From assembly GCF_045106495.1 (NCBI RefSeq), contig NZ_JBGCEQ010000031.1, forward strand, positions 54,727 through 118,726: a stretch of 64,000 nt of DNA, written 5' to 3'. The first letter of the stretch is position 1. Every line of letters starts with the position of its first letter. Both the position numbers and the translations under genes were made by a program. The notes beneath the pieces were generated by a model, which did not search any database, was not told the origin of the DNA, and worked only from the letters and a program-made list of their open reading frames with translations. Source of the DNA: Roseobacter sp. (lineage in GTDB: Bacteria > Pseudomonadota > Alphaproteobacteria > Rhodobacterales > Rhodobacteraceae). Shown piece by piece: positions 7,318 to 64,000 of the stretch.

Positions 7318-7423
7318 AGTTTTCGATTTTTGTCCTTCCTGAAATTCACAGTCGGATGCACTGTTGTCCCAGTCAAGTGTGCGCCTGAATCGCGTTTTTG
7401 ACTGTGCTTTTGGGGGGGGTCGC

Positions 7424-13060: not shown

Positions 13061-14434
13061 ATGCCGTCTTATCGCCATTTGAGTAAACGCCATCCGGCTG
13101 GTTCGGACGCAGAGATTTTGCGCAAGCGCACGATTTCAGGGTTGCGGCGACTGCGCACAGCACTTTCCGCTCATTTTCCGCAAGACATCGACAGGATGAC
13201 AACGGTTCGAATAGGCACCTGGAACATCCGCGAGTTTGGTAACACCAAGTACGGCGGCAGAGACACCTACGAGCCGCTTTACTATATGGCGGAGATTGTA
13301 TCCAATTTCGACATTGTTGCCATTCAGGAAGTGCGGGGCAACATGAGTGAATTCCTCGATCTGCTGGAAATCCTGGGACCAGCCTGGGACTATCTGGCCA
13401 CAGATGTCACCGATGGGCGTGCTGGAAACGGTGAACGCATGGTCTTTGCGTTTAATCGCAATCGAGTGCGTTTCAGAAACATTGCGGGTGAACTGACTTT
13501 ACCGGATGGCAAAAAAATATTGGCCAGCTTTGGGGAGCGAATCCGGCTGGAAAACGGCATAGCGCTAGAGTTGCCCGATGGCACAGATCTTTCAGGTGTT
13601 TACAGGGCGCGGAGCGACAAGAAGAGCAGCGGTGCCGTTAAGCTCGCCGAGGATGTTGATATTGCCTTGCCAGCTGGCACCCGGCTCAATCTGCCCGACG
13701 GTAGCGCGCTTGCGGTAACCAGAGGGACCGAAGTAACACGACCGCCCGGCACCAGGGGCCAAGTCACGTTAGATGTGCCGCAAGGCGAAGTTGTTGGGGA
13801 AAGTTTTCGACTACGGTTTCCCGGCGCTGCCCTCGACCAAAGCTTCAAACAATTCGCGCGGACGCCTTACTTGGTAAGTTTCCAGGCGGGATGGCTCAAG
13901 ATTGATCTGGCGACCGTGCATATCTATTTTGGCGATAATTCAGACGAGAAATTGCTAGAGCAACGCAAACGGGAGATCGCTGGCCTGACCGAAGCGCTGG
14001 GCAAGCGAGCGGCCAAAGACATGTCAGACAATCCCGAAAGCTCTGTGTTAACGGCCGTACTGGGGGACTTCAACATACTCAGTGCAAAACATGAGACGAT
14101 GCAGGCGCTGGAAGCCAATGGCTTCGAGGTCCCGGAACAGATACGCGCCATTCCCGGGTCTAATGTCGATAAAGACAAAGCCTATGATCAGATCGCGTTT
14201 TGGGAGCCGAAACGCGCGCGGGGTTACACGCGTTTTGAAGTGCGGGGCGCGAATGTTTTCGACTTTTATGAACATGTTTATCGGCTGGATGAGCGCACCA
14301 CTTACCAGCCGGACCGAAGCGAAGGGTCATATAAGACATGGAGAACCTACAAGATGAGTGACCATCTGCCTATGTGGGTTGAATTGACCAGCGACTTTTC
14401 AGATGCGTTTATCGAAGCATGTGACGCGTCCTAG
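13061..14434 (+). CDS. endonuclease/exonuclease/phosphatase (EEP, DNase-I fold) family protein with internal repeat insertion
   Basis: EEP strands and motifs are present (…VRIGTWNIREFG…, …DIVAIQEV…, …GDFN…, C-terminal …SDHLPMWVEL…). The ATG at 13061 is preceded by AGGGGGAAG. A roughly 110-aa insert carries five L/V-P-x-G repeats. Confidence 0.8.
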   Translation: MPSYRHLSKRHPAGSDAEILRKRTISGLRRLRTALSAHFPQDIDRMTTVRIGTWNIREFGNTKYGGRDTYEPLYYMAEIVSNFDIVAIQEVRGNMSEFLDLLEILGPAWDYLATDVTDGRAGNGERMVFAFNRNRVRFRNIAGELTLPDGKKILASFGERIRLENGIALELPDGTDLSGVYRARSDKKSSGAVKLAEDVDIALPAGTRLNLPDGSALAVTRGTEVTRPPGTRGQVTLDVPQGEVVGESFRLRFPGAALDQSFKQFARTPYLVSFQAGWLKIDLATVHIYFGDNSDEKLLEQRKREIAGLTEALGKRAAKDMSDNPESSVLTAVLGDFNILSAKHETMQALEANGFEVPEQIRAIPGSNVDKDKAYDQIAFWEPKRARGYTRFEVRGANVFDFYEHVYRLDERTTYQPDRSEGSYKTWRTYKMSDHLPMWVELTSDFSDAFIEACDAS

Positions 14435-14772
14435 CCGATTTTGGCGGTAATTCAGAATCTCGGAAGCGATTTTTTCCGCAAACCAAATCTGATCTCTGAT
14501 GCATCGGAATCTCCAGTTTTTTTTTAACTTTGCTTTGATCATCGCAATCTGCAAACCAATCGTGGTGAAGGGCTAGCGTCCCCAATTGGAATGGAACAAA
14601 GGAAGGCGAAATTTTGGCGCTTTCACTTGGTGTTGAACCATTTGTCAGCAACATAGCCAAGTGACTCTTGCCAGCTTATTGACCATCTGGAGCTTGTGGA
14701 AAAATCGGTCTTTCAATCAATGAGAATTTTTTGCTAACAATAGATCATCTCTGAGTACGTGGAGGAACAGCA

Positions 14773-15201
14773 TTGGCAAAGTTGTTGATGATGGAAGACG
14801 ATGTTGTTTTCAGCTTCCGATTGAAGAACATGTTGAAATCAGCCGGGCATCAGGTCGAAGTTCGAAGTTCTGCGACGGATGCCATCGAAGAACTATTGAA
14901 TGAATCCTACGATGTCCTGATCTCCGATGTCATCATCCGCGAAGACGGCAAACTTGTTCCAGATGGCGGCATAAAACTGGTTTCCTGGGTGCGCAACCAT
15001 GAGGAGATGAAAACACTTCCAATCATTGTGATCACTGGATCTCATAAATATCAAGGAATGCAACACATCCTGACCACTGCCAGGCAAATCGGCGCGAATG
15101 CTGGTTTGGAAAAACCATTTGATGATGATGAAATTTTGTCTCTGATCAGTCGACTGTCCGAAACCACTGCGAACGCGCTTCACAAAAATGCGCTTCGATA
15201 G
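14773..15201 (+). CDS. stand-alone response-regulator receiver (CheY-like)
   Basis: REC signature: acidic EDD near the N-terminus, phospho-acceptor …LISDV…, …VITGS…, and …LEKPF…. The TTG start follows GGAGGA. There is no output domain and no kinase nearby. Confidence 0.8.
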   Translation: MAKLLMMEDDVVFSFRLKNMLKSAGHQVEVRSSATDAIEELLNESYDVLISDVIIREDGKLVPDGGIKLVSWVRNHEEMKTLPIIVITGSHKYQGMQHILTTARQIGANAGLEKPFDDDEILSLISRLSETTANALHKNALR

Positions 15202-54911: not shown

Positions 54912-57557
54912 ATGAACGACACCACATCCAGATCAGCAGAAGACATGGTGGCCGAGGCCGACACAGGTGCGCGTAACGCCGGACCTTTTGCGGCCAACCT
55001 CATATTCGGACTGTGCATCGCATGGTCGATTTTCCAGCTATACATCGCCTCAAAAGTCCCCGGCGTTCTGGCTCAAGCCACAGGCATCAGCGGTTTCGCC
55101 AACATCGTGGCGCAAGCCCGATTTGTGCACCTTGCTTTTGCGATTGCGCTGGCAACACTTGCTTTTCCAATGTTCGGCCACCGAAACCGCATCCCATGGT
55201 ATGATTGGGTTTTGGTCCTGTTGGGTGTGGGTGCCTGTCTTTATCTGGTGGTGTTCCGGTTCGAAATTGCCGACCGCCCCGGACTCTGGAGTGCGTCTGA
55301 CATCGTGATGTCAGCCATAGGTATGTCGGTTTTGATGGTTGCGGTCTTCCGATCTCTCGGCTTGCCTCTCGTCATTATTGCCTCTGCATTTCTCGCGCTT
55401 GCATTCTTTGGCGGATACTCCGCTTGGATTGGCAGCATCACCAACTACGGCGGCGCATCTTTCAGCAAGGCAATGGGCCACTATTGGATGCAAACCGAGG
55501 GGGTCTTTGGTGTCGCGTTGGGCGTGTCCACCTCCATGATCTTTTTATTCGTGTTGTTTGGCGCCCTGCTGGAAAAAGCGGGAGGCGGGAACTGGTTCAT
55601 CAAAGTCGCGATCGCGCTGTTGGGCGCTTTACGTGGCGGACCGGCGAAGGCCGCTGTTTTGTCATCGATGATGACGGGTATGATTTCGGGCTCCTCGATT
55701 GCTAACACAGTGACCACAGGTACGTTTACCATTCCGCTGATGAAGCGGATCGGTTTTTCGGCAGAAAAGGCCGGCGCTGTGGAAGTCGCCTCATCAACCA
55801 ATGGCCAGTTGACCCCGCCCGTGATGGGGGCGGCGGCCTTTCTCATGGTGGAATACGTCAACATTCCCTACATCGAAGTCGTCAAGCACGCCTTCTTGCC
55901 TGCTGTGATTTCCTATATCGCGCTGCTCTACATCGTACACTTGGAAAGCTTGAAGCTGGGGCTTCAGGGATTGAAGAAGCCAGGGCGACACATTGGTGTT
56001 GTAATGATCATGATCCTGTTTCTCACAGGCTTCTTTACGATGGCCGCCTTGACCATGTTGGTAATCGGTTTCCGTGCCGTGCTAGAACCCTTTATGCCGG
56101 GCGCCACAATCTATCCTGCGCTGGCTTTGCTTGCTGTGGCGTATCTTGTGCTGCTGTTTGTGGCATCGCGTTTCCCCGATGTGGTACCTGATGATCCAAA
56201 CTCCCAAGTCGTGGAAGCACCGCGCTTGACCCCAACGTTTTGGGGCGGCGCGTACTATGCATTGCCGATCTTTGTGCTTGTCTGGAACCTGATGGTACGG
56301 ACCGATACACTCGATCGACTGTCGCCCGCGCTTTCTGCATTCTGGGCGACCATTGTCATGATCATTGTGGCTCTGACGCACCGGCCTATAAAACAGATGA
56401 TGCGGGGGGCAACCCACCGGCATCTTGCAGCATCACCCACTGGCAATACCTTCGGCACAGCCGTCCGAGATTTTGTGGCCGGACTGGAAAGTGGCGCGCG
56501 CAACATGATCGGCATCGGTGTCGCGACGGGTGCTGCTGGTATCATCGTCGGCACGATTTCTCTGACGGGTGCACACCAAATCATTGGTCAAGTAATTGAG
56601 GCCATCGCCGGGGGCAACCTGATCATATTGCTTCTGCTGGTTGCGGTCCTGTCCTTGATCCTTGGTATGGGTTTGCCAACAACCGCCAATTATATCGTTG
56701 TGTCGTCCCTTATGGCACCGGTTATCGTCAGCGTGGGTGCCCAGTCCGGGTTGATCGTGCCGCTGATCGCGGTCCACCTCTTTGTTTTCTATTTTGGTAT
56801 CCTGGCCGATGACACGCCACCCGTGGGACTGGCCGCTTACGCGGCCGCGGCGATTTCGCGCGGCGACCCGATTAAGACGGGCATCGTAGGCTTCAGCTAT
56901 GACATCAGAACCGCCTTGTTGCCATTCATGTTCATCTTCAACACGGATCTGCTACTGATCGACGTAGGGCCTGGCAAAGCCGTTATGGTCTTCTTCATCT
57001 CGCTGATCGCCATGCTTGTCTTTGCTGCCGTCACCCAAGGTTACTTCATCGCCAAGACGCGCAAGTGGGAAGCCGTCGTTATGATGCTTGTTGTGTTCAT
57101 GCTGTTCCGACCAGACTTTTTCCTGGACCAATGGCAGGATAAATACACTGAAACGACCGGACCCGCTGCACTAACCGCTCTCGAAGAATTACCGATTGGA
57201 GCGACCGCACGGCTGCGCATATCTGCCCCAGATTTCGATACTGGCATCGTCGGCACGACGACTGTGACTTTGACGCCAGAAGCGGAGGGCAGTGGTTCAG
57301 AGCGGCTGGACGCTGTTGGTCTGACGGTGATCGAAGACGGTGATATTCTCACGTTGGATGAACCCTTTCCAGGGACGCCCTATTTCGATCAATTGGCAAA
57401 TGACTACGATTTCTATGGTGATGAACCTGCACAGATTGAAGCCGTTGCCATTGAGAACGAGCGCATGGCAAAGGAAATCTTCTTCATCCCTGCACTGCTT
57501 CTTCTCCTCATGATCGTTGCAATCCAACGCCCACGCGCAACACAACCTGCATTCTAA
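54912..57557 (+). CDS. TRAP transporter fused permease (TAXI-type, DctQ-DctM fusion with C-terminal extra domain)
   Basis: 881-aa polytopic protein. A soluble segment near the C-terminus is followed by a last TM helix, as in fused TAXI permeases. Confidence 0.9.
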   Translation: MNDTTSRSAEDMVAEADTGARNAGPFAANLIFGLCIAWSIFQLYIASKVPGVLAQATGISGFANIVAQARFVHLAFAIALATLAFPMFGHRNRIPWYDWVLVLLGVGACLYLVVFRFEIADRPGLWSASDIVMSAIGMSVLMVAVFRSLGLPLVIIASAFLALAFFGGYSAWIGSITNYGGASFSKAMGHYWMQTEGVFGVALGVSTSMIFLFVLFGALLEKAGGGNWFIKVAIALLGALRGGPAKAAVLSSMMTGMISGSSIANTVTTGTFTIPLMKRIGFSAEKAGAVEVASSTNGQLTPPVMGAAAFLMVEYVNIPYIEVVKHAFLPAVISYIALLYIVHLESLKLGLQGLKKPGRHIGVVMIMILFLTGFFTMAALTMLVIGFRAVLEPFMPGATIYPALALLAVAYLVLLFVASRFPDVVPDDPNSQVVEAPRLTPTFWGGAYYALPIFVLVWNLMVRTDTLDRLSPALSAFWATIVMIIVALTHRPIKQMMRGATHRHLAASPTGNTFGTAVRDFVAGLESGARNMIGIGVATGAAGIIVGTISLTGAHQIIGQVIEAIAGGNLIILLLLVAVLSLILGMGLPTTANYIVVSSLMAPVIVSVGAQSGLIVPLIAVHLFVFYFGILADDTPPVGLAAYAAAAISRGDPIKTGIVGFSYDIRTALLPFMFIFNTDLLLIDVGPGKAVMVFFISLIAMLVFAAVTQGYFIAKTRKWEAVVMMLVVFMLFRPDFFLDQWQDKYTETTGPAALTALEELPIGATARLRISAPDFDTGIVGTTTVTLTPEAEGSGSERLDAVGLTVIEDGDILTLDEPFPGTPYFDQLANDYDFYGDEPAQIEAVAIENERMAKEIFFIPALLLLLMIVAIQRPRATQPAF

Positions 57558-57569
57558 CGGGAGTTTCGA

Positions 57570-57986
57570 ATGTTTAAGAAAGTCCTGATCCCTGTCGACA
57601 CATCTGTCAGCGATGACACGCAGCATCTGTTGCAAGCGGCAAAATATTTGACGGAGAACTGGTCATGTGAACGCCATGTCATCACCGTCATTCCTGACTT
57701 TGGAATGCCTATTGTCGGCTCATTCTTTGACGACAATTTTGAGGCAGAAAACCGAAAGTCGGTTGAAACGGCACTGGCAGAAGCAATTGTATCGTCAGGC
57801 ATTGAGGCCGAGCAGAGTGTTCTGTCGGGAAAGGTCTACGACTGTGTCATCGCACATGCATCCAGGCTTGATGCTGATCTGATCATCATCGGTGCGCATC
57901 AACCGGAACTACGTGAGTATTTGCTTGGTTCAAACGCCGCGCGCGTGGTTAGGCATTCAAATAGATCAGTGCTTGTTTTGCGTTAA
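57570..57986 (+). CDS. universal stress protein (UspA family)
   Basis: 138 aa with …KKVLIPVD… at the N-terminus and …GSNAARVVRHSNRSVLVL… at the C-terminus. Confidence 0.85.
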   Translation: MFKKVLIPVDTSVSDDTQHLLQAAKYLTENWSCERHVITVIPDFGMPIVGSFFDDNFEAENRKSVETALAEAIVSSGIEAEQSVLSGKVYDCVIAHASRLDADLIIIGAHQPELREYLLGSNAARVVRHSNRSVLVLR

Positions 57987-58324
57987 TTGGAACGATCCCA
58001 ACCCACCGGATTTGTTGTGTGTTCGCTTAGGTCACGATCGCCGTTTCTTCTGGCGTTGGTTTCTTGGCCTAGGGACGTACCAAACGCTTCTCCCCACGCT
58101 CTGGTTTGATCATCGTTGGAATGCAGCGATTTCTTTACGGGTTGTAGATCAGATGTGCGGAAACATGAGCGGCTTGACGACCAAAGCACCTTGCAAGTGG
58201 GCCCCGTGGATACGGCGTCTAATCCAAACTAAAGAATAACACGTATACTGATAAATTGCTGCTAAGAAGACGCCGACGCATTATCTTGAACGCGTGCTTT
58301 TTTAGTCATTTGATTGGGTTGCCG

Positions 58325-59857
58325 ATGAAACTGCGTTTGGTTCTTGCAGATCAACTCAACAAAAGTATTACATCGCTCCGTGATCTTGAGGTACACGACG
58401 TAATCTTGATGGCTGAGGTGCGTTCCGAAGCGACCTATGTGAAGCATCATAAAAAGAAGATCGCTTTTCTTTTTTCTGCCATGCGCCACTTTGCCCAAGA
58501 CTTGATCTCCGAAGGGGCGAACGTCGAGTATGTGTTCTATGACACACCCGACAATTCTGGATCATTGTTTGGTGAGGTGCAGCGGGTGGTAGAGTCGCAT
58601 AAGATCGACAAAGTTGTTGTCACTTCGCCCGGGGAACATCGACTGCTATCAGAGATGCAAGGCTGGTCCAAACAGTTGGATATTCCCGTCGAGATACTGA
58701 ACGATGACCGTTTTCTTTCCAGCGTAAATGAGTTTGCCGATTGGGCCAAAGGGCGCAAACAGCTTAGAATGGAATTTTTCTATCGCGAAATGCGGCGCAA
58801 GTACTCGGTTTTGATGGAACCCGAAGGTCCAACCGGAGGAGAATGGAATTACGACGCCAAAAACCGAAAGCCACCGAAGGAAGGCTTAACCATACCGCCG
58901 CCGTTTTGCGCCGAACCGGATATAGTCACACGTGACGTAATGGCCTTGGTCGACCGAGAGTTCGCTGATCACTTTGGTGATCTGGAACCGTTTCACTATG
59001 GGGTCACTCGGGGCGATGCACTGGCTGCCTTGGATATGTTCATCGAGACGCGCCTTGCCTGTTTTGGAGATTATCAGGATGCGATGATCCAAGGCGAAGC
59101 TTGGATGTATCACAGTCACATCGCTCTCTACCTGAATTGTGGGCTGCTGGAGCCACTGGAGTGCGTCCAAAAAGCAGAGGCAGCCTACCGACAGGGCGAC
59201 GTGCCCCTAAATTCTGCGGAGGGCTTCATACGCCAAATAATTGGCTGGCGGGAATTTGTACGCGGAATTTACTGGCTCAAGATGCCGTCATATAAAGACT
59301 CAAATTATCTTGAGGCTCATCGCGCCCTGCCAGAGTTCTATTGGACTGCCGAAACCAACATGAATTGTCTTCGACAGTCCATTTTGGAGACGAAGCAAAA
59401 CGCTTATGCCCACCATATCCAACGTCTGATGGTTCTGGGTAATTTTGCGCTGTTGGCTGGTCTCAGACCGGATCAGGTTAATGAATGGTATCTATTGGTG
59501 TACGCCGATGCGTATGAGTGGGTTGAGCTGCCCAACGTAAGCGGCATGGTTTTGTTTGCGGATGGTGGGTTGTTGGCGTCAAAACCCTATGCTGCTAGCG
59601 GTTCGTACATCAAGAAAATGTCCAACTACTGCGACAACTGCGCTTACAAGGTGGCTGCCAAGAATGGTTCCAAGGCCTGCCCCTTTAACTATCTCTACTG
59701 GGATTTCGTCGATCGCAACTCAGAAAAATTGCGAGGCAACCCGCGTATGGGTTTTGTGTTTGGAACGCTTGATCGGATGAGCCAAGACAAGCGGCTAGCT
59801 ATCAAGGATGACACCAGTCGGTTCTTCAGCGCTTTGAAAAGTGGGGACACAGTTTAG
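58325..59857 (+). CDS. FeS-cluster bacterial cryptochrome/photolyase (CryB / PhrB (6-4) photolyase-like)
   Basis: 510 aa from ATG 58325. The Cys pattern C…C-x2-C-x12-C (…NMNC…, …YCDNCAYKVAAKNGSKAC…) matches the [4Fe-4S] ligands of this family. Confidence 0.85.
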   Translation: MKLRLVLADQLNKSITSLRDLEVHDVILMAEVRSEATYVKHHKKKIAFLFSAMRHFAQDLISEGANVEYVFYDTPDNSGSLFGEVQRVVESHKIDKVVVTSPGEHRLLSEMQGWSKQLDIPVEILNDDRFLSSVNEFADWAKGRKQLRMEFFYREMRRKYSVLMEPEGPTGGEWNYDAKNRKPPKEGLTIPPPFCAEPDIVTRDVMALVDREFADHFGDLEPFHYGVTRGDALAALDMFIETRLACFGDYQDAMIQGEAWMYHSHIALYLNCGLLEPLECVQKAEAAYRQGDVPLNSAEGFIRQIIGWREFVRGIYWLKMPSYKDSNYLEAHRALPEFYWTAETNMNCLRQSILETKQNAYAHHIQRLMVLGNFALLAGLRPDQVNEWYLLVYADAYEWVELPNVSGMVLFADGGLLASKPYAASGSYIKKMSNYCDNCAYKVAAKNGSKACPFNYLYWDFVDRNSEKLRGNPRMGFVFGTLDRMSQDKRLAIKDDTSRFFSALKSGDTV

Positions 59858-60071
59858 GATCTCCATTTTCTCGGCGTTTCGTATGGATCGCTTATGCTTA
59901 CCAGGACTTGTTATGTCGCTATTGGATTGCCGAGTTGGTGCGCAATTAGTGCAAAATTGAAAAGTTGTTTGTTGGCTTAGGCCCGCCCGCAGTCCAACAA
60001 AGTAGATACCTGCAGGTGAATGTTCGATTTTGCTATCAAGTCAAATTTGAGACTACATTTCCAACTACTTG

Positions 60072-61052
60072 CTATTGGTCACCGGCGGATAAAAGGCTTT
60101 GCAGAGTAAGGGACCTTTGCGGCCCGGCAAAACCCGGTTTTTTGTAAGTCACGCCTTCATGGCGAGCAAAATCAGCGAATGCGTTTGCCTCGTGCAACTG
60201 GTTGATTTGGGAATCAATAGCCGCCGCCAAAACCGAATTTCTTTCGAGCAGTGCGATACCGATATCCATGCCAATAGGATGACGCCAGTTGGCAAGCTCG
60301 AGAGTGCTGATTTGGTTGTGTTTTTTGTGGCTGTCATATGCGGCTACGTCGACGATTGCCACGTCGGCTATGCCGGTTTCGAGGTTCCACAGAAACCGGG
60401 GACCGGGGTTAAAGGTTTGCGCGACGGCTGCGATGTCGGGGGCATTGACCAGCAGGATAGCTCCAGACATTGTATTTTGCTGGTACGCCACTTTGCGCCC
60501 CATCAGGCTGTTCAGCCCTTTTGGCTCCTGTGTGTCTGTGGTGTACACCAGTCCAATTTCGGCCCTCATGTATGGTTGCGTTACGGTAATCGGTTCCAGC
60601 TGGACGTGGGGCAGGTGAGCGGCAACGGAACGCTGCGTCTCGGCGTCGATGGTTTCGGGCATGCCTAGCCATCGGGGCAACGGACCTGTTTCGGCAATTG
60701 ATGCGCCAATGGCTGGCACATATAGCGGGTGAGAGGGGGCCATGTCGCACAGCCCATAAGCGAGCAGAGCATATATCTCCTGAACCGGGTCGTTTTCTTC
60801 GCCCAATTCGTTTTCAAACCAGACGGTTTTCAATGGTAGATTCAATCCCTCTGCGATCGCTTCGCTGACCTTGAAGTCCATCCCGGTACCACCATCCGAA
60901 CGCAAACCGGAAATGGCACCGGCATTGCGTGCAAGGCAAGCAGTCAGATGACCAGGATTGACGAGGCTCTCAGGATCAATCGTTTGGCTCAGTTTTTTTT
61001 TGAGCCTTCGGGAAAAGGTTCTGAGCCGCCACGCGTGGCGACATAAACCCAA
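60072..61052 (-). CDS. quinoprotein-dehydrogenase-associated periplasmic binding protein (MoxJ/XoxJ-like, SBP family 3); start unresolved
   Basis: Family-3 SBP look after …GHLTACLARNAG…. The only in-frame start (TTG 61052) overlaps the cytochrome gene by 64 nt and gives no signal peptide. See the A9-tract finding. Confidence 0.65.
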   Translation of the reverse strand: MGLCRHAWRLRTFSRRLKKKLSQTIDPESLVNPGHLTACLARNAGAISGLRSDGGTGMDFKVSEAIAEGLNLPLKTVWFENELGEENDPVQEIYALLAYGLCDMAPSHPLYVPAIGASIAETGPLPRWLGMPETIDAETQRSVAAHLPHVQLEPITVTQPYMRAEIGLVYTTDTQEPKGLNSLMGRKVAYQQNTMSGAILLVNAPDIAAVAQTFNPGPRFLWNLETGIADVAIVDVAAYDSHKKHNQISTLELANWRHPIGMDIGIALLERNSVLAAAIDSQINQLHEANAFADFARHEGVTYKKPGFAGPQRSLTLQSLLSAGDQ

Positions 61053-61339
61053 AGGGCGTCCATTTCTTCGGGGTAAATAACATCACCCCAAGCGGGCATT
61101 GCCCCCCGGCCAGACTGAACGCTGCTATAGAAGCGCTCTTTTTCATCCACAGGGAAGCGTCGCAGGTCGTAGGATGAGGTCCCGGGGTTCACCATATCCT
61201 TGCCATGGCATTTGGAACAAAAGAACTCGTATGCCTCCAGGCCCGCTTCAAATTGCGGATGGGGGTCCTCGCCAAAAGCCGGCCCTAAAGAAAGGGCCAG
61301 CGCAAAAAGGGAGATCAAGGTGCGCATACTTTTCCTCAC
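60989..61339 (-). CDS. periplasmic mono-haem c-type cytochrome (PedF/XoxG-like electron acceptor)
   Basis: Signal peptide, haem motif CSKCH and Met ligand region …GAMPAWG…. The start overlaps the PQQ-dehydrogenase stop by 4 nt. Confidence 0.85.
   Translation of the reverse strand: MRKSMRTLISLFALALSLGPAFGEDPHPQFEAGLEAYEFFCSKCHGKDMVNPGTSSYDLRRFPVDEKERFYSSVQSGRGAMPAWGDVIYPEEMDALWVYVATRGGSEPFPEGSKKN
60993..61001 (-). repeat. A9 homopolymer (T9 on the + strand) at the cytochrome c / binding-protein junction
   Basis: Minus strand reads GGC TCA AAA AAA AAC TGA. This contains the slippery heptamer A_AAA_AAA immediately before the cytochrome stop. It is flanked by the inverted repeat GGCTC…GAGCC. 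Confidence 0.9.
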
Positions 61340-62991
61340 TGCGGCAGTGCGAAGGTCCAGACAGACCCACCTGCAGGTGTATCGGCAAGACGCTCATCAC
61401 CTGAAAAGAGAGGATAGACACCGCCGGACCCATTGAGGATCGAGACATACTGCATACCGTTCATTTCCCAGGTTACGGGCTGTCCAATGATGCCGGACCC
61501 TGTGTTGAAGGACCACAGTGGAGCACCACTTTCCGCGTCAAAGGCTTCGAACTCGCCAGTTTGCGCGCCCGTGAACACAACACCGCCACCTGTTGAAAGC
61601 ACACCGGCAGTGCGCGGGATATCGCTGGGCGCTGTCCATTTGGCCTTACCCGTCATTGGATCAATGGCGCGCAGATCACCACGCGGACCATCCGGCCATT
61701 CCCAGGTGAACTCCGCCCCGAAATAGAAGACACCTGCGCGATACTTTGGTTCAACCGCCTTATAGTTCATACCCACGTTGAAAGTATTCACGAACACTGT
61801 GTTCAGGTCTGGATGGTAAGACACCGGAGACCAGTTTTTACCCCCAAAAGCAGAAGGCCAAAATTGCGTGGGTTCGCCCGAGATGGCTTTTTGATAAACA
61901 TCAGTATGAACAGGACGACCGGTTGCAAGATCGATCTTTTCAGCCCAGTTCAATTTGTCCACAAAAGGGTTGGCCGCGATCAGTTCACCATTGGTGCGAT
62001 CGATCACGTAGTAAAACCCGTTTCGGTTGGCCTGCATCATGACTTTGCGACCATCCAATTCAGCCAAGACCAATTCATTGGTGCCGTCATGATCGAATGG
62101 ATCATTGGGCGAGAATTGATAGTGCCACTGGATTTCGCCATTTTTCGGGTTCATGGCGACCACTGAAGAGGTGTAAAGGTTGTCACCGGGACGCAATTGC
62201 GCATTCCATGATGCGGCGTTGCCGACACCCCAGTAAACCAGATTGAGGTCCGGATCATAAGATCCGGTAAGCCAAGCGGGGCCACCGCCGCGTTCCCAGG
62301 CATCACCTTCTGGCCAGGTTTCGCTGCCCGGCTGTCCTGGTTCCGGGATGGTATAGGTACGCCAAAGCCGCTCGCCGGTTTTCGGATCATAGCCTTCGAT
62401 ATAGCCGCGGATTCCATACTCACCGCCCGAGATGCCGACTATCAAAACACCGTCCGCCACTAAGGGTGTAACGGTAAAAGAGTAACCCTGTTTGTAATCA
62501 ATGGATTTCGTGCGCCACAATTCTTTACCAGTGGCAGCATCAATGGCAATGATATGGGCATCCAGCGTGGTGCGAAACAATACTCCATCCAGCATCGCAA
62601 CACCTCGATTAACAATGCCGCAGCACGCGACGCGCGGTGCTTCTGCCGGATAATCAACGGATGATTTCCATAATTGTTTTCCCGTGGCTGCATCCAGGGC
62701 AAATGTTGAGGAATGCGTTGTCGCGTACATGACGCCATCCTTGATCAGGGGAAAACTTTCCTGACCGCGTGTGTCACCAAGGCTGTATGCCCAAACTGGG
62801 GTTAAGTCCGACACATTTTCAGTGGTGATCTGATCCAGTGCGCTAAACCGTTTCTGATCATATCCCATTCCGTAAACAAGCACATCGCCTGGCGTGGATG
62901 CATCTGCGGCAAGGTCGTCTTCGGATTGCGCGGATGCAAACGTCGCCATACCGATCGCCGTGACAACGGCGGCTGTGAATAGTGACTTCAT
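61336..62991 (-). CDS. PQQ-dependent dehydrogenase, methanol/ethanol family
   Basis: Signal peptide, vicinal disulfide …VACCGIVNRG…, W-rich propeller repeats and an active-site segment …NDPFDHDGTNE…. The RBS GGAGGAAAG is upstream. Confidence 0.9.
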   Translation of the reverse strand: MKSLFTAAVVTAIGMATFASAQSEDDLAADASTPGDVLVYGMGYDQKRFSALDQITTENVSDLTPVWAYSLGDTRGQESFPLIKDGVMYATTHSSTFALDAATGKQLWKSSVDYPAEAPRVACCGIVNRGVAMLDGVLFRTTLDAHIIAIDAATGKELWRTKSIDYKQGYSFTVTPLVADGVLIVGISGGEYGIRGYIEGYDPKTGERLWRTYTIPEPGQPGSETWPEGDAWERGGGPAWLTGSYDPDLNLVYWGVGNAASWNAQLRPGDNLYTSSVVAMNPKNGEIQWHYQFSPNDPFDHDGTNELVLAELDGRKVMMQANRNGFYYVIDRTNGELIAANPFVDKLNWAEKIDLATGRPVHTDVYQKAISGEPTQFWPSAFGGKNWSPVSYHPDLNTVFVNTFNVGMNYKAVEPKYRAGVFYFGAEFTWEWPDGPRGDLRAIDPMTGKAKWTAPSDIPRTAGVLSTGGGVVFTGAQTGEFEAFDAESGAPLWSFNTGSGIIGQPVTWEMNGMQYVSILNGSGGVYPLFSGDERLADTPAGGSVWTFALPQ

Positions 62992-63033
62992 TGTCTTTCC
63001 TCCCTGAAAGATATTCCGTTCGGTCTTTGTATG

Positions 63034-64000
63034 CTATGCGGCCGTCGTTTTTTGCCTCAATTCTTCCTCTGTTTGTTGCCGCATAATAAACTTTTGTGGC
63101 TTGCCGGTGACCGTCATTGGCAAGCTGGCCTTCATCATGATGTGTTTGGGTATTTTGTAGTGAGCAATTTGTTCGACACAGTATGCTTTCACTGCCTCCG
63201 GCATCAATTCGGGTTCTGACGGCACAATCCACGCGCAGACAACCTCGCCTAGCGTTTCATCCGGGATGCCAAAAACCTGTACCTGTGCGATGCCGGGATG
63301 GGTAAAGAGGAAATCCTCAATTTCGCGAGGATAAACGTTCTCTCCACCTCGAATGATCATATCTTTGACGCGACCTGTGATATCGCAATATCCCCCGGCG
63401 TCGATGATCGCCAGATCGCCAGTGTTCATCCAGCCGTCTCGAATTGCCTCCGCTGTTCGCTCGGCGTCGCCCCAATAGCCTTGCATGACAGAATAGCCGC
63501 GGGTCAACAATTCGCCTTGCTGACCTATAGGCAAGGTCGCGCCATCTGCACCGACAACCTTGCATTCCACATGAGGGTGAATGCGACCTACTGTACTGAC
63601 GCGCTTGTCCAGAGGATCGTCCACATCCGATTGGAACGAGACTGGCGATGTTTCGGTCATTCCATATGCGATGGTGACTTCGGTCATGTTCATCTTGGCC
63701 TGCACTTTTTTCATGACTTCAATAGGGCATGACGCACCGGCCATGATGCCGGTGCGCAGATGGCTCAGATCGAAGGTTTCAAAATCAGGCAGCCCAAACT
63801 CAGCTACAAACATTGTGGGAACACCATACAGTGCCGTACAGCATTCATCAGCCACGGCATGCAAGGTCTCAGATGGGTCGAAACCTTCGCCGGGCACAAT
63901 CATGGTGGCGCCTTTGGTGATACAGCCCAATGTTCCCATGACCATGCCAAAGCAATGATAAAATGGGACAGGTATGCACAAGCGGTCGTTCTCGGAGAAA
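63034..64000 (-). CDS. AMP-forming acyl-CoA synthetase; N-terminus lies outside the window
   Basis: …YGMTETSP…, …TGDLAIIDAGGYCDITGRVKDMIIRGGENVYPREIE…. The frame stays open to the window edge, and the track start is only an internal TTG. Confidence 0.85.
   Translation of the reverse strand, partial: FSENDRLCIPVPFYHCFGMVMGTLGCITKGATMIVPGEGFDPSETLHAVADECCTALYGVPTMFVAEFGLPDFETFDLSHLRTGIMAGASCPIEVMKKVQAKMNMTEVTIAYGMTETSPVSFQSDVDDPLDKRVSTVGRIHPHVECKVVGADGATLPIGQQGELLTRGYSVMQGYWGDAERTAEAIRDGWMNTGDLAIIDAGGYCDITGRVKDMIIRGGENVYPREIEDFLFTHPGIAQVQVFGIPDETLGEVVCAWIVPSEPELMPEAVKAYCVEQIAHYKIPKHIMMKASLPMTVTGKPQKFIMRQQTEEELRQKTTAA

Follow-up and report, generated by a model that had tools for sequence, protein, structure and literature searches.

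An out-of-frame poly-A run in the linker of a cytochrome c–substrate-binding protein gene of Roseobacter sp., a candidate site of programmed homopolymer slippage that recurs in four lineages

Runs of nine A or T cause high-efficiency slippage of RNA polymerase in vivo, the RNA-DNA hybrid being 9-10 bp long (PMC5009743). In Thermus thermophilus dnaX, slippage on a nine-base homopolymer mainly adds A's and the product with one additional A is the commonest, while in Shigella flexneri mxiE/spa13 the extended product comes from 25-30% of the transcripts (PMC5009743). Two-open reading frame (two-ORF) dnaX genes with an A10 or A9 run encode a short product in the zero frame and a long one that is reached by slippage (PMC3711429), and among the seven conserved cases of a genome-wide slippage survey published in 2005 one candidate was not an insertion sequence (IS) (PMC1088944). 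Here we describe an A9 run on the minus strand of a 64,000-nucleotide (nt) stretch of Roseobacter sp. (contig NZ_JBGCEQ010000031.1), hereafter the window, which lies between a small c-type cytochrome and a family-3 substrate-binding protein (SBP) domain, downstream of a pyrroloquinoline quinone (PQQ)-dependent alcohol dehydrogenase. This module order, dehydrogenase, cytochrome and SBP, matches pedE-pedF-pedG and xoxF-xoxG-xoxJ, and for the SBP-like component of ped and xox modules a part in maturing the dehydrogenase or in interaction with the cytochrome has been proposed (PMC12997753). We consider it probable that the frame break at this run is genuine and bridged by slippage, and the locus would be a well-supported new candidate for programmed homopolymer slippage in a cellular gene.

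In the zero frame of the minus strand the run is read as ...GAA GGC TCA AAA AAA AAC TGA and the cytochrome ends with ...PFPEGSKKN*. The SBP frame is the -1 frame, where the same run is read as AGG CTC AAA AAA AAA CTG AGC (example of the peptide: LSQTIDPESLVNPGHLTACLAR), and it is open from 61052 to a stop at 60072-60074. Before the SBP domain this frame has a TTG at 61050-61052, 64 nt within the cytochrome gene, as its sole start codon, and no hydrophobic core is present in the 45 -1-frame residues before the conserved LTACL strand (maximal 12-residue Kyte-Doolittle (KD) mean of -0.13). The initial annotation of this stretch had described the end of the cytochrome ORF, the read-through of A9 in the -1 frame, the TTG as sole start and the lack of a hydrophobic leader, and all of these statements were confirmed. 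It had also claimed that one extra A gives a single product. Indeed, one added A yields a product of 418 amino acids (aa), made of a signal peptide, the cytochrome c, a linker and the SBP, which can be aligned over its full length with about 60 natural cytochrome c–SBP fusions of 408-420 aa (alignment A1). Both domains stand colinear behind a single signal peptide only after this addition, the frames being split at the DNA level, and the signal peptide of the cytochrome is the only export signal available to the two domains. The slip site falls in the sole poorly conserved stretch of the fusion alignment, and in the AlphaFold2 (AF2) model of the natural fusion P0004 residues 109-112 have a predicted local distance difference test score (pLDDT) below 50 between two confident domains. 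The SBP domain of the window was modelled with a pLDDT of 94.9 as an SBP fold, and its top Foldseek matches are amino-acid-type family-3 SBPs. In public collections, a 112-aa cytochrome call identical to that of the window exists, and the call for the SBP (P0001, 269 aa) starts at a downstream ATG (MDFKV...) and drops the first conserved beta-strand.

A search with the SBP frame found 61 relatives. Besides P0001 and P0002, the split orthologue of the metagenome-assembled genome L001 (65%), the closest ones are 53-60% identical, and the SBP domain of the window shares 55-60% identity with the SBP part of natural fusions. Most close relatives are ~ 412-414 aa long (full-length calls range over 408-438) and carry a PF13442 cytochrome domain at the N-terminus, an example of natural fusion being the 'c-type cytochrome' protein of Roseobacter sp. 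EG26, and a second group of ~ 325 aa is found without the cytochrome. Seventy-seven loci from species-representative genomes and metagenomes were surveyed for their architecture: 42 display a single fused ORF, 29 two genes, and 6 are split without a leader. SBPs encoded by separate genes carry their own signal peptide with hydrophobicity maxima of 1.9-3.1 (14 scorable), in contrast to the split SBPs, which have no leader. The fusion is, by this comparison, the ancestral or typical form of the family. Some members exceed the standard fusion by ~ 100 aa (P0071, P0079, P0095, P0096, P0098 and P0101, of 510-521 aa, as well as L022 and L024), and at least two, P0145 and P0146 (524-527 aa), have an extra PF00034 domain, a second cytochrome c domain that would turn the cytochrome–SBP fusion into a dihaem form.

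Comparison of the junction across orthologous loci, as the initial annotation had suggested, showed that the A-run is kept in the split relatives, and it also uncovered fused forms and forms with a leader of their own. Indeed, an out-of-frame A9 or A10 run is located in the inter-domain linker in four separate lineages, with a zero-frame stop 1-8 codons past the run in every lineage. The sample comprises ~ 11 sequence-distinct assemblies and more than 25 contigs, and only one contig is in frame. Lineage 1 consists of the window, L141 and L001, all with A9 and the -1 frame (sequence CAAAAAAAAACTGA). L141 is the Logan assembly of a different sequencing run (ERR3534973) with 98.06% nucleotide identity to the window over 5.9 kb, and L001 (GCA_020357715.1) shows 65% amino acid identity to the window with saturated synonymous sites. 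Lineage 2 is formed by L032 together with L059 and L143 (both Logan) and L144 (JGI). It displays TC-A10-TAA with the SBP in the +1 frame, and L032 is an isolate, Primorskyibacter sp. 2E233, whose SPAdes contig has a coverage of 321x. In lineage 3 (GC 0.61), which comprises L084 (identical to L085, L151 and L152), L146 with L147 (ENA) and L148 (Logan), the junction is GG-A9-GCCC(G/C)TAG with the -1 frame throughout, and the taxa are 80-83% identical at the nucleotide level. Lineage 4 (GC 0.40), with L149 and L150, shows GCT-A10-TAG... and the -1 frame.

At the fused junctions of the 77-locus survey no homopolymer of at least six was found, and the separate-gene junctions contain just one A6. 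Furthermore, along 493 kb of related loci, A/T runs of at least nine are present only at the junctions. Among 57 in-frame fusion proteins with a recognisable linker a single one, P0066, has a poly-A run, and no in-frame variants were observed among the members of the 90% protein clusters. P0066 (420 aa) is encoded by L140 (Logan ERR13847226_589056, 1-1386), a contig that spans from 119 nt upstream of the cytochrome start to 4 nt past the SBP stop, is 98.2% identical to L059 and has A9 instead of A10, in frame. Should that sequencing run be derived from RNA, L140 would be direct evidence of a slipped transcript. Besides L140, tract length is alike in all other close pairs and replicates. Moreover, 13 contigs of one population share an identical leaderless SBP call, and the three of them with a DNA read carry A9 and are 100% identical. 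A scan of JGI metagenomes gave no close relatives of the window and lineage 3 only. P0058, encoded by L145, was considered as a further slip site and rejected: at L145:2025-2045 (ENA ERZ26696514, ctg295440_4.79x) an otherwise fused member shows a frameshift at G6 in the conserved SSGGVGLDY, inside the domain. This is an ordinary assembly error or lesion, not common to relatives, and it stands as a contrast case.

The reading frame beyond the run is maintained. Between L032 and L059 the SBP frame shows nonsynonymous (dN) and synonymous (dS) divergences of 0.07 and 1.36, a dN/dS of 0.05, and the cytochrome part shows a dN/dS of 0.12. Between the window and L001, dS is saturated and the domain has a nucleotide identity of 63%; the run of nine A's and the CTGA behind it are nevertheless the same in both. 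SBP ORFs lying wholly inside contigs are intact and full length in every lineage. These observations indicate that the shifted SBP frame is under strong purifying selection and functional. The initial annotation had also offered a recently frameshifted gene as an explanation, which is rejected, as the arrangement persists across saturated synonymous divergence with a dN/dS of 0.05 downstream.

On a neighbour-joining tree of the SBP domains the four lineages are distinct. The window and L001 group with 93% bootstrap, and with the fused Roseobacter EG26 gene as sister at 70%; L032 and L059 group with 100%, as do L084, L146 and L148, and lineage 4 is a single taxon. The nearest non-split neighbours have no run and are fused genes for lineages 1, 3 and 4 and a mix of separate and fused genes for lineage 2. 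The runs differ between lineages in their flanks and in their distance from the domain boundaries; therefore an independent origin of the poly-A runs in the four lineages is likely. Lineage 2, the Primorskyibacter type, is placed at the base of a clade whose SBPs have their own leader. With a bootstrap of just 56% for this grouping, the idea of lineage 2 as an intermediate of fusion or fission is speculative and only a hypothesis. In general terms, poly-A slippage in the linker might be a recurrent selectable device with at least four independent origins, which sets the ratio of free to tethered carrier and could be an intermediate between fusion and fission; we put this forward as a tentative and rather doubtful generalisation.

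How the two frames could be joined is proposed as follows. The A9 run, located in the flexible linker of a gene for a cytochrome c–SBP fusion, would be a slippage site that evolution has maintained. Standard decoding would halt one codon past the run and give a free exported cytochrome c of 112 aa, which presumably accepts electrons from the PQQ alcohol dehydrogenase encoded next to it. One A would be added in a minority of expression events, most likely by RNA polymerase realigning on a 9-nt rA:dT hybrid, with a possible contribution from -1 slips of the ribosome on A_AAA_AAA or A_AAA_AAC. Slipped expression would then enter the -1 frame and give the 418-aa signal peptide–cytochrome c–linker–SBP protein, the fusion being the only predicted route to the periplasm for the leaderless SBP domain. 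In this manner one gene could supply free cytochrome in excess together with less cytochrome tethered to a PedG/XoxJ-like accessory SBP. We infer the occurrence of slippage, its RNA-polymerase level, the product ratio and the physiological role of this ratio.

Several observations bear on the level at which slippage would occur. Lineages 1, 3 and 4 need one additional A, and lineage 2 needs one fewer or two more. An A_AAA_AAA heptamer is in phase in lineages 1, 3 and 4, and the window also has an in-phase A_AAA_AAC, so that the -1 ribosomal frameshifting emphasised in the initial annotation could be pictured there. Ribosomes of E. coli are reportedly able to slide on poly-A. However, in lineage 2 a -1 ribosomal slip is impossible since the -1 frame meets TAA at once. 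Because lineage 2 needs the opposite frame shift, slippage by RNA polymerase is favoured as the common mechanism; by this comparison of frames it is the best-fitting one, with a possible ribosomal contribution. Hence, the earlier proposal of programmed recoding is supported by the comparative data but its emphasis on the ribosome was too narrow, as the A10 and +1 frame of lineage 2 show. When both flanks of the run were folded for five loci, no significant or shared stimulatory RNA structure was found (z-scores from -0.02 to -1.6), and the slip site has no clear internal Shine-Dalgarno sequence and no conserved stimulator of -1 frameshifting. No Rfam match was obtained at E <= 1, and a promoter and terminator scan of 59700-63200 gave counts at chance level and nothing relevant. 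The absence of flanking structure fits context-independent slippage on a long run. Furthermore, the features by which Baranov et al. (2005) recognised slippage are present, namely an uninterrupted coding run of at least nine A or T and a longer product whose new part is conserved, and the comparative sign of functional slippage they described is seen within the window, L141 and L001, within L032 and L059, and within L084, L146 and L148.

A number of points weigh against this proposal. Slippage itself is something that we infer from sequence, and the RNA polymerase of these Alphaproteobacteria is not known to slip on A9. The arrangement could be tolerated rather than selected, and slippage may merely rescue a fixed frameshift. 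Some contigs are within-lineage replicates (L084/L085/L151/L152 and L059/L143), and the independent observations amount to ~ 11, not ~ 30. The single A9 of the window is not statistically unusual: runs of A8 or longer in the 64 kb are not rarer than chance (4 matches vs a mean of 5.2 in shuffles) and AAA makes up 56% of the Lys codons of the window, therefore the significance of the run comes from its recurrence in orthologues and not from the lone run. Lastly, L140 indicates that tract length can differ at the DNA level, unless this 1.4-kb contig is erroneous. The serious rival is accordingly phase variation of the DNA, i.e. a contingency tract on which replication slippage toggles between fusion ON and cytochrome-only OFF, with RNA slippage being irrelevant. 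Indeed, poly-A tracts are slippery for DNA polymerase as well (PMC3711429), and L140 is one A off its 98%-identical relatives and in frame. We nevertheless consider it unlikely, for tract length is otherwise fixed within lineages: A9 is kept in the window, L141 and L001 and in three taxa at 80-83% nucleotide identity, and A10 in L032 and L059 at a dS of 1.36. About 10 of the 11 distinct assemblies are out of frame, the protein clusters hold no in-frame variants, and the 13 contigs of one population have the same leaderless call, with A9 in the three copies read as DNA. Unless genomes in the OFF state still make some of the protein, such a prevalence of OFF conflicts with the dN/dS of 0.05 of the SBP frame.

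The other explanations are much less probable. An error in the homopolymer that conceals a natural fusion, the true gene of the window being an in-frame fusion with A10, was among the initial suggestions. Fusions do occur naturally and most of the family has this architecture, homopolymers are error-prone, and L145 (4.79x) carries an error-type frameshift at a G run inside the domain. The break itself is real, however, as L141 and L001 share the A9 and its frame, and the same length is found in an NCBI genome, Logan unitigs, ENA, JGI and a SPAdes isolate at 321x. Sequencing or assembly error would need undercalls in three lineages and overcalls in the fourth, and it leaves unexplained the run itself, which is absent from the fused relatives with the sole exception of P0066, making this explanation highly improbable. 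Gene decay or fission in progress, with a broken fusion whose SBP is no longer made or is dispensable, would suit NCBI-type pipelines, which would call the locus a frameshifted pseudogene, and the grouping of the Primorskyibacter-type lineage with the separate-gene clade (56% bootstrap). It is very unlikely against full-length SBP ORFs wherever they lie wholly within contigs, a dN/dS of 0.05, a synonymous divergence that is saturated with no secondary lesion and a model with a pLDDT of 94.9. Finally, the SBP could be self-initiated, from an internal TTG or ATG or by reinitiation, and be cytoplasmic or exported otherwise, for example through a twin-arginine translocation (Tat)-like RR in ...FSRRLKKK... 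A -1-frame TTG (window) or ATG (L001) is indeed present inside the cytochrome gene, and the -1 frame has stretches rich in Arg ahead of the run, but these internal starts are a by-product of conserved cytochrome Leu-Trp codons, what follows the run can be aligned with the mature linker of fusions, and all other members of the family have a Sec leader for export, either through fusion or as their own. Tat-type export of a self-initiated SBP was rejected, no hydrophobic segment following the RR (KD maxima from -0.27 to 1.37), and self-initiation as a whole has little chance of being correct. A genuine break bridged by slippage thus remains the reading that we prefer, and the features of the locus are listed with their positions in Table 1.

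Table 1. Features of the dehydrogenase–cytochrome c–SBP module and of the slip site in the window
Feature	Position	Strand	Basis
PQQ-dependent alcohol dehydrogenase, 551 aa	61336..62991	-	TIGR03075 650 bits (cut-off 480) and PF01011
Free cytochrome read in the zero frame (small c-type, class I; 112 aa, ATG at 61327)	60989..61327	-	PF13442 45.4 bits (gathering cut-off 27)
Sec-type signal peptide MRTLISLFALALSLGPAFG	61271..61327	-	sequence reading; aligned with natural-fusion N-termini (alignment A1)
Haem motif CSKCH, residues 37-41	61205..61219	-	C37, C40 and H41 invariant in alignments A1 and A6
A9 run (T9 on the + strand) in the inter-domain linker	60993..61001	-	sequence; identical in L141 and L001
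Stop TGA of the zero frame, ends the free cytochrome one codon past the run	60989..60991	-	sequence reading
-1-frame coding region of the 306-aa family-3 SBP domain, LSQTIDPESLVNPGHLTACLARN...SAGDQ*, no own leader	60072..60992	-	homology, AF2 and KD scan
Linker between the two domains, variable and probably disordered (GGSEPFPEGSKKKLSQTIDPESLVNPGH in the fused product), hosts the slip site	60948..61030	-	variable columns of A1

The dehydrogenase is the first gene of the module; 8 nt separate its TGA stop from the ATG of the cytochrome, and this ATG is preceded by GAGGAAAAG. The cytochrome would have 116 aa if the GTG at 61339 were used. It is a class I cytochrome with a CxxCH motif, an invariant distal M77 and a PF13442 match above the gathering threshold, and it matches c6 and c550 PedF weakly in NCBIfam (PedF with 25 bits vs a cut-off of 122). 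A PQQ dehydrogenase gene is also found upstream of the cytochrome in L001, L141, L146, L149 and L151. Around the module, lineage 1 has an AraC regulator, an aldehyde dehydrogenase and an acyl-CoA synthetase as neighbours, lineage 3 (L146:4533-5864) an AraC regulator with pqqA, pqqB and pqqC, and lineage 4 (L149:3492-4936) a SoxYZ-like carrier and a rhodanese.

Direct assignment of the SBP gave no Pfam match, only weak LAO-binding and MoxJ_2 matches in NCBIfam, and marginal single-sequence matches in the PDB. The 'MoxJ/XoxJ-like' label of the initial annotation is appropriate only for fold class and gene context, the protein combining a two-lobed family-3 SBP fold with a location beside a PQQ dehydrogenase and a cytochrome, but by sequence the window SBP is neither a MoxJ nor a MoxJ_2 protein, as TIGR03871 reaches 14.7 bits vs a cut-off of 212, and TIGR03870 (MoxJ) is absent among its listed matches. 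Family-wide, the best member has E = 6.7e-8 against TIGR03871, and weak matches to TIGR03870 are seen in 5 of 36 members. A profile search matched XoxJ (6onp, 1e-4) and MxaJ (9ism, 2e-3) over an N-terminal stretch only.

Some further features of the window were observed. The PQQ dehydrogenase (61336-62991, minus strand) has a D-H-D motif around ...SPNDPFDHDGTNELV... Lanthanide-dependent XoxF/PedH-type enzymes have D-x-D and the calcium enzymes are without the second Asp, and the dehydrogenase may be a candidate lanthanide-dependent alcohol dehydrogenase from this motif. Downstream of the module and on the opposite strand (+) are a fused TRAP-transporter permease of 881 aa (54912-57557; DctM/DUF3394 in the annotation of L141), a universal stress protein and a photolyase-related DPRP protein (PF04244), the latter two at 57570-57986 and 58256-59857. 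With these three genes on the opposite strand, the operon ends with the module. The other 9-nt run of the window, T9 at 14517-14525, is intergenic, between plus-strand ORFs that end at 14434 and start at 14773; it is not a coding slip site and could belong to a terminator or promoter region. A G8 run at 7412-7419 occupies the expected position of a ribosome-binding site directly upstream of a probable GTG start (GTG CCG AAA ATT ATC... = MPKIIFDQVAKSYGAVEVL, an ABC-ATPase-like N-terminus).

Outside mobile elements, ordinary bacterial genes contain few conserved recoding sites, and this case, if true, adds a periplasmic redox module to them. No mention of it was found in the review on recoding (PMC5009743), in the slippage survey of 2005 (PMC1088944) or in the GeneTack survey of 2013 (PMC3711429), the last of which does not name any cytochrome, and a literature search on PQQ, cytochrome and binding-protein fusions gave nothing relevant. 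Its unusual aspects are the recurrence and the fact that it links two proteins which elsewhere are fused or apart. The family thus offers a natural experiment, the same two domains occurring as a fixed fusion, as two genes, or as joined by the proposed slippage. In terms of annotation, such loci are called frameshifted pseudogenes or yield a truncated 'hypothetical protein' with no leader (P0001, P0002, P0024 and P0067), which hides a probable functional fusion. As for the role of the PedG/XoxJ-like SBP, its physical coupling to the cytochrome suggests a way to study it.

Among the described systems, the dnaX genes of T. thermophilus and of the two-ORF type resemble this locus by an uninterrupted run of 9-10 A on the coding strand and by two products from one gene (PMC5009743; PMC3711429), and in the two-ORF genes the zero-frame stop likewise follows directly after the run and the long product needs slippage. 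They differ in that dnaX encodes a replication clamp loader and the locus described here a periplasmic redox and accessory module, whose long form would join two folded domains that elsewhere are found in one ORF or in two genes. The mxiE/spa13 system of S. flexneri is also a cellular gene, chromosomal or plasmid, and not an IS, in which homopolymer slippage gives an extended functional product; unlike it, a type III secretion system gene of a narrow taxon, the present arrangement is found in four lineages at non-homologous positions of the linker. Compared with the A_AAA_AAG of E. coli dnaX and the A_AAA_AAC of IS1, the in-phase A_AAA_AAA and A_AAA_AAC heptamers of lineages 1, 3 and 4 are alike, with a nearby zero-frame stop as in IS1, but here no stimulatory stem-loop, pseudoknot or clear Shine-Dalgarno sequence was found, and lineage 2 needs +1.

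In the case of pedE-pedF-pedG, xoxF-xoxG-xoxJ and mxaF-mxaJ-mxaG, the three-part module and the family-3 SBP fold are shared. Indeed, lineage 4 has the SoxYZ-like protein and rhodanese as in the Pseudomonas ped cluster, and pqqABC adjoin the module in lineage 3. In contrast to these systems, the cytochrome is here of the small PF13442 type and not a cL or c550, the SBP lies far below the MoxJ and MoxJ_2 cut-offs, and cytochrome and SBP are fused or joined by the proposed slippage. Finally, the poly(A) rescue of endosymbionts, the 'green' class of Baranov et al. (2005), likewise concerns frameshifted genes that have single-ORF homologues and can be restored by slippage (PMC1088944). Unlike those of endosymbionts, the genomes examined here belong to free-living bacteria and are not rich in AT (GC of 53-62% in three lineages). 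Moreover, different species have kept the out-of-frame state, and the locus accordingly falls into the 'conserved organisation' class of the same authors.

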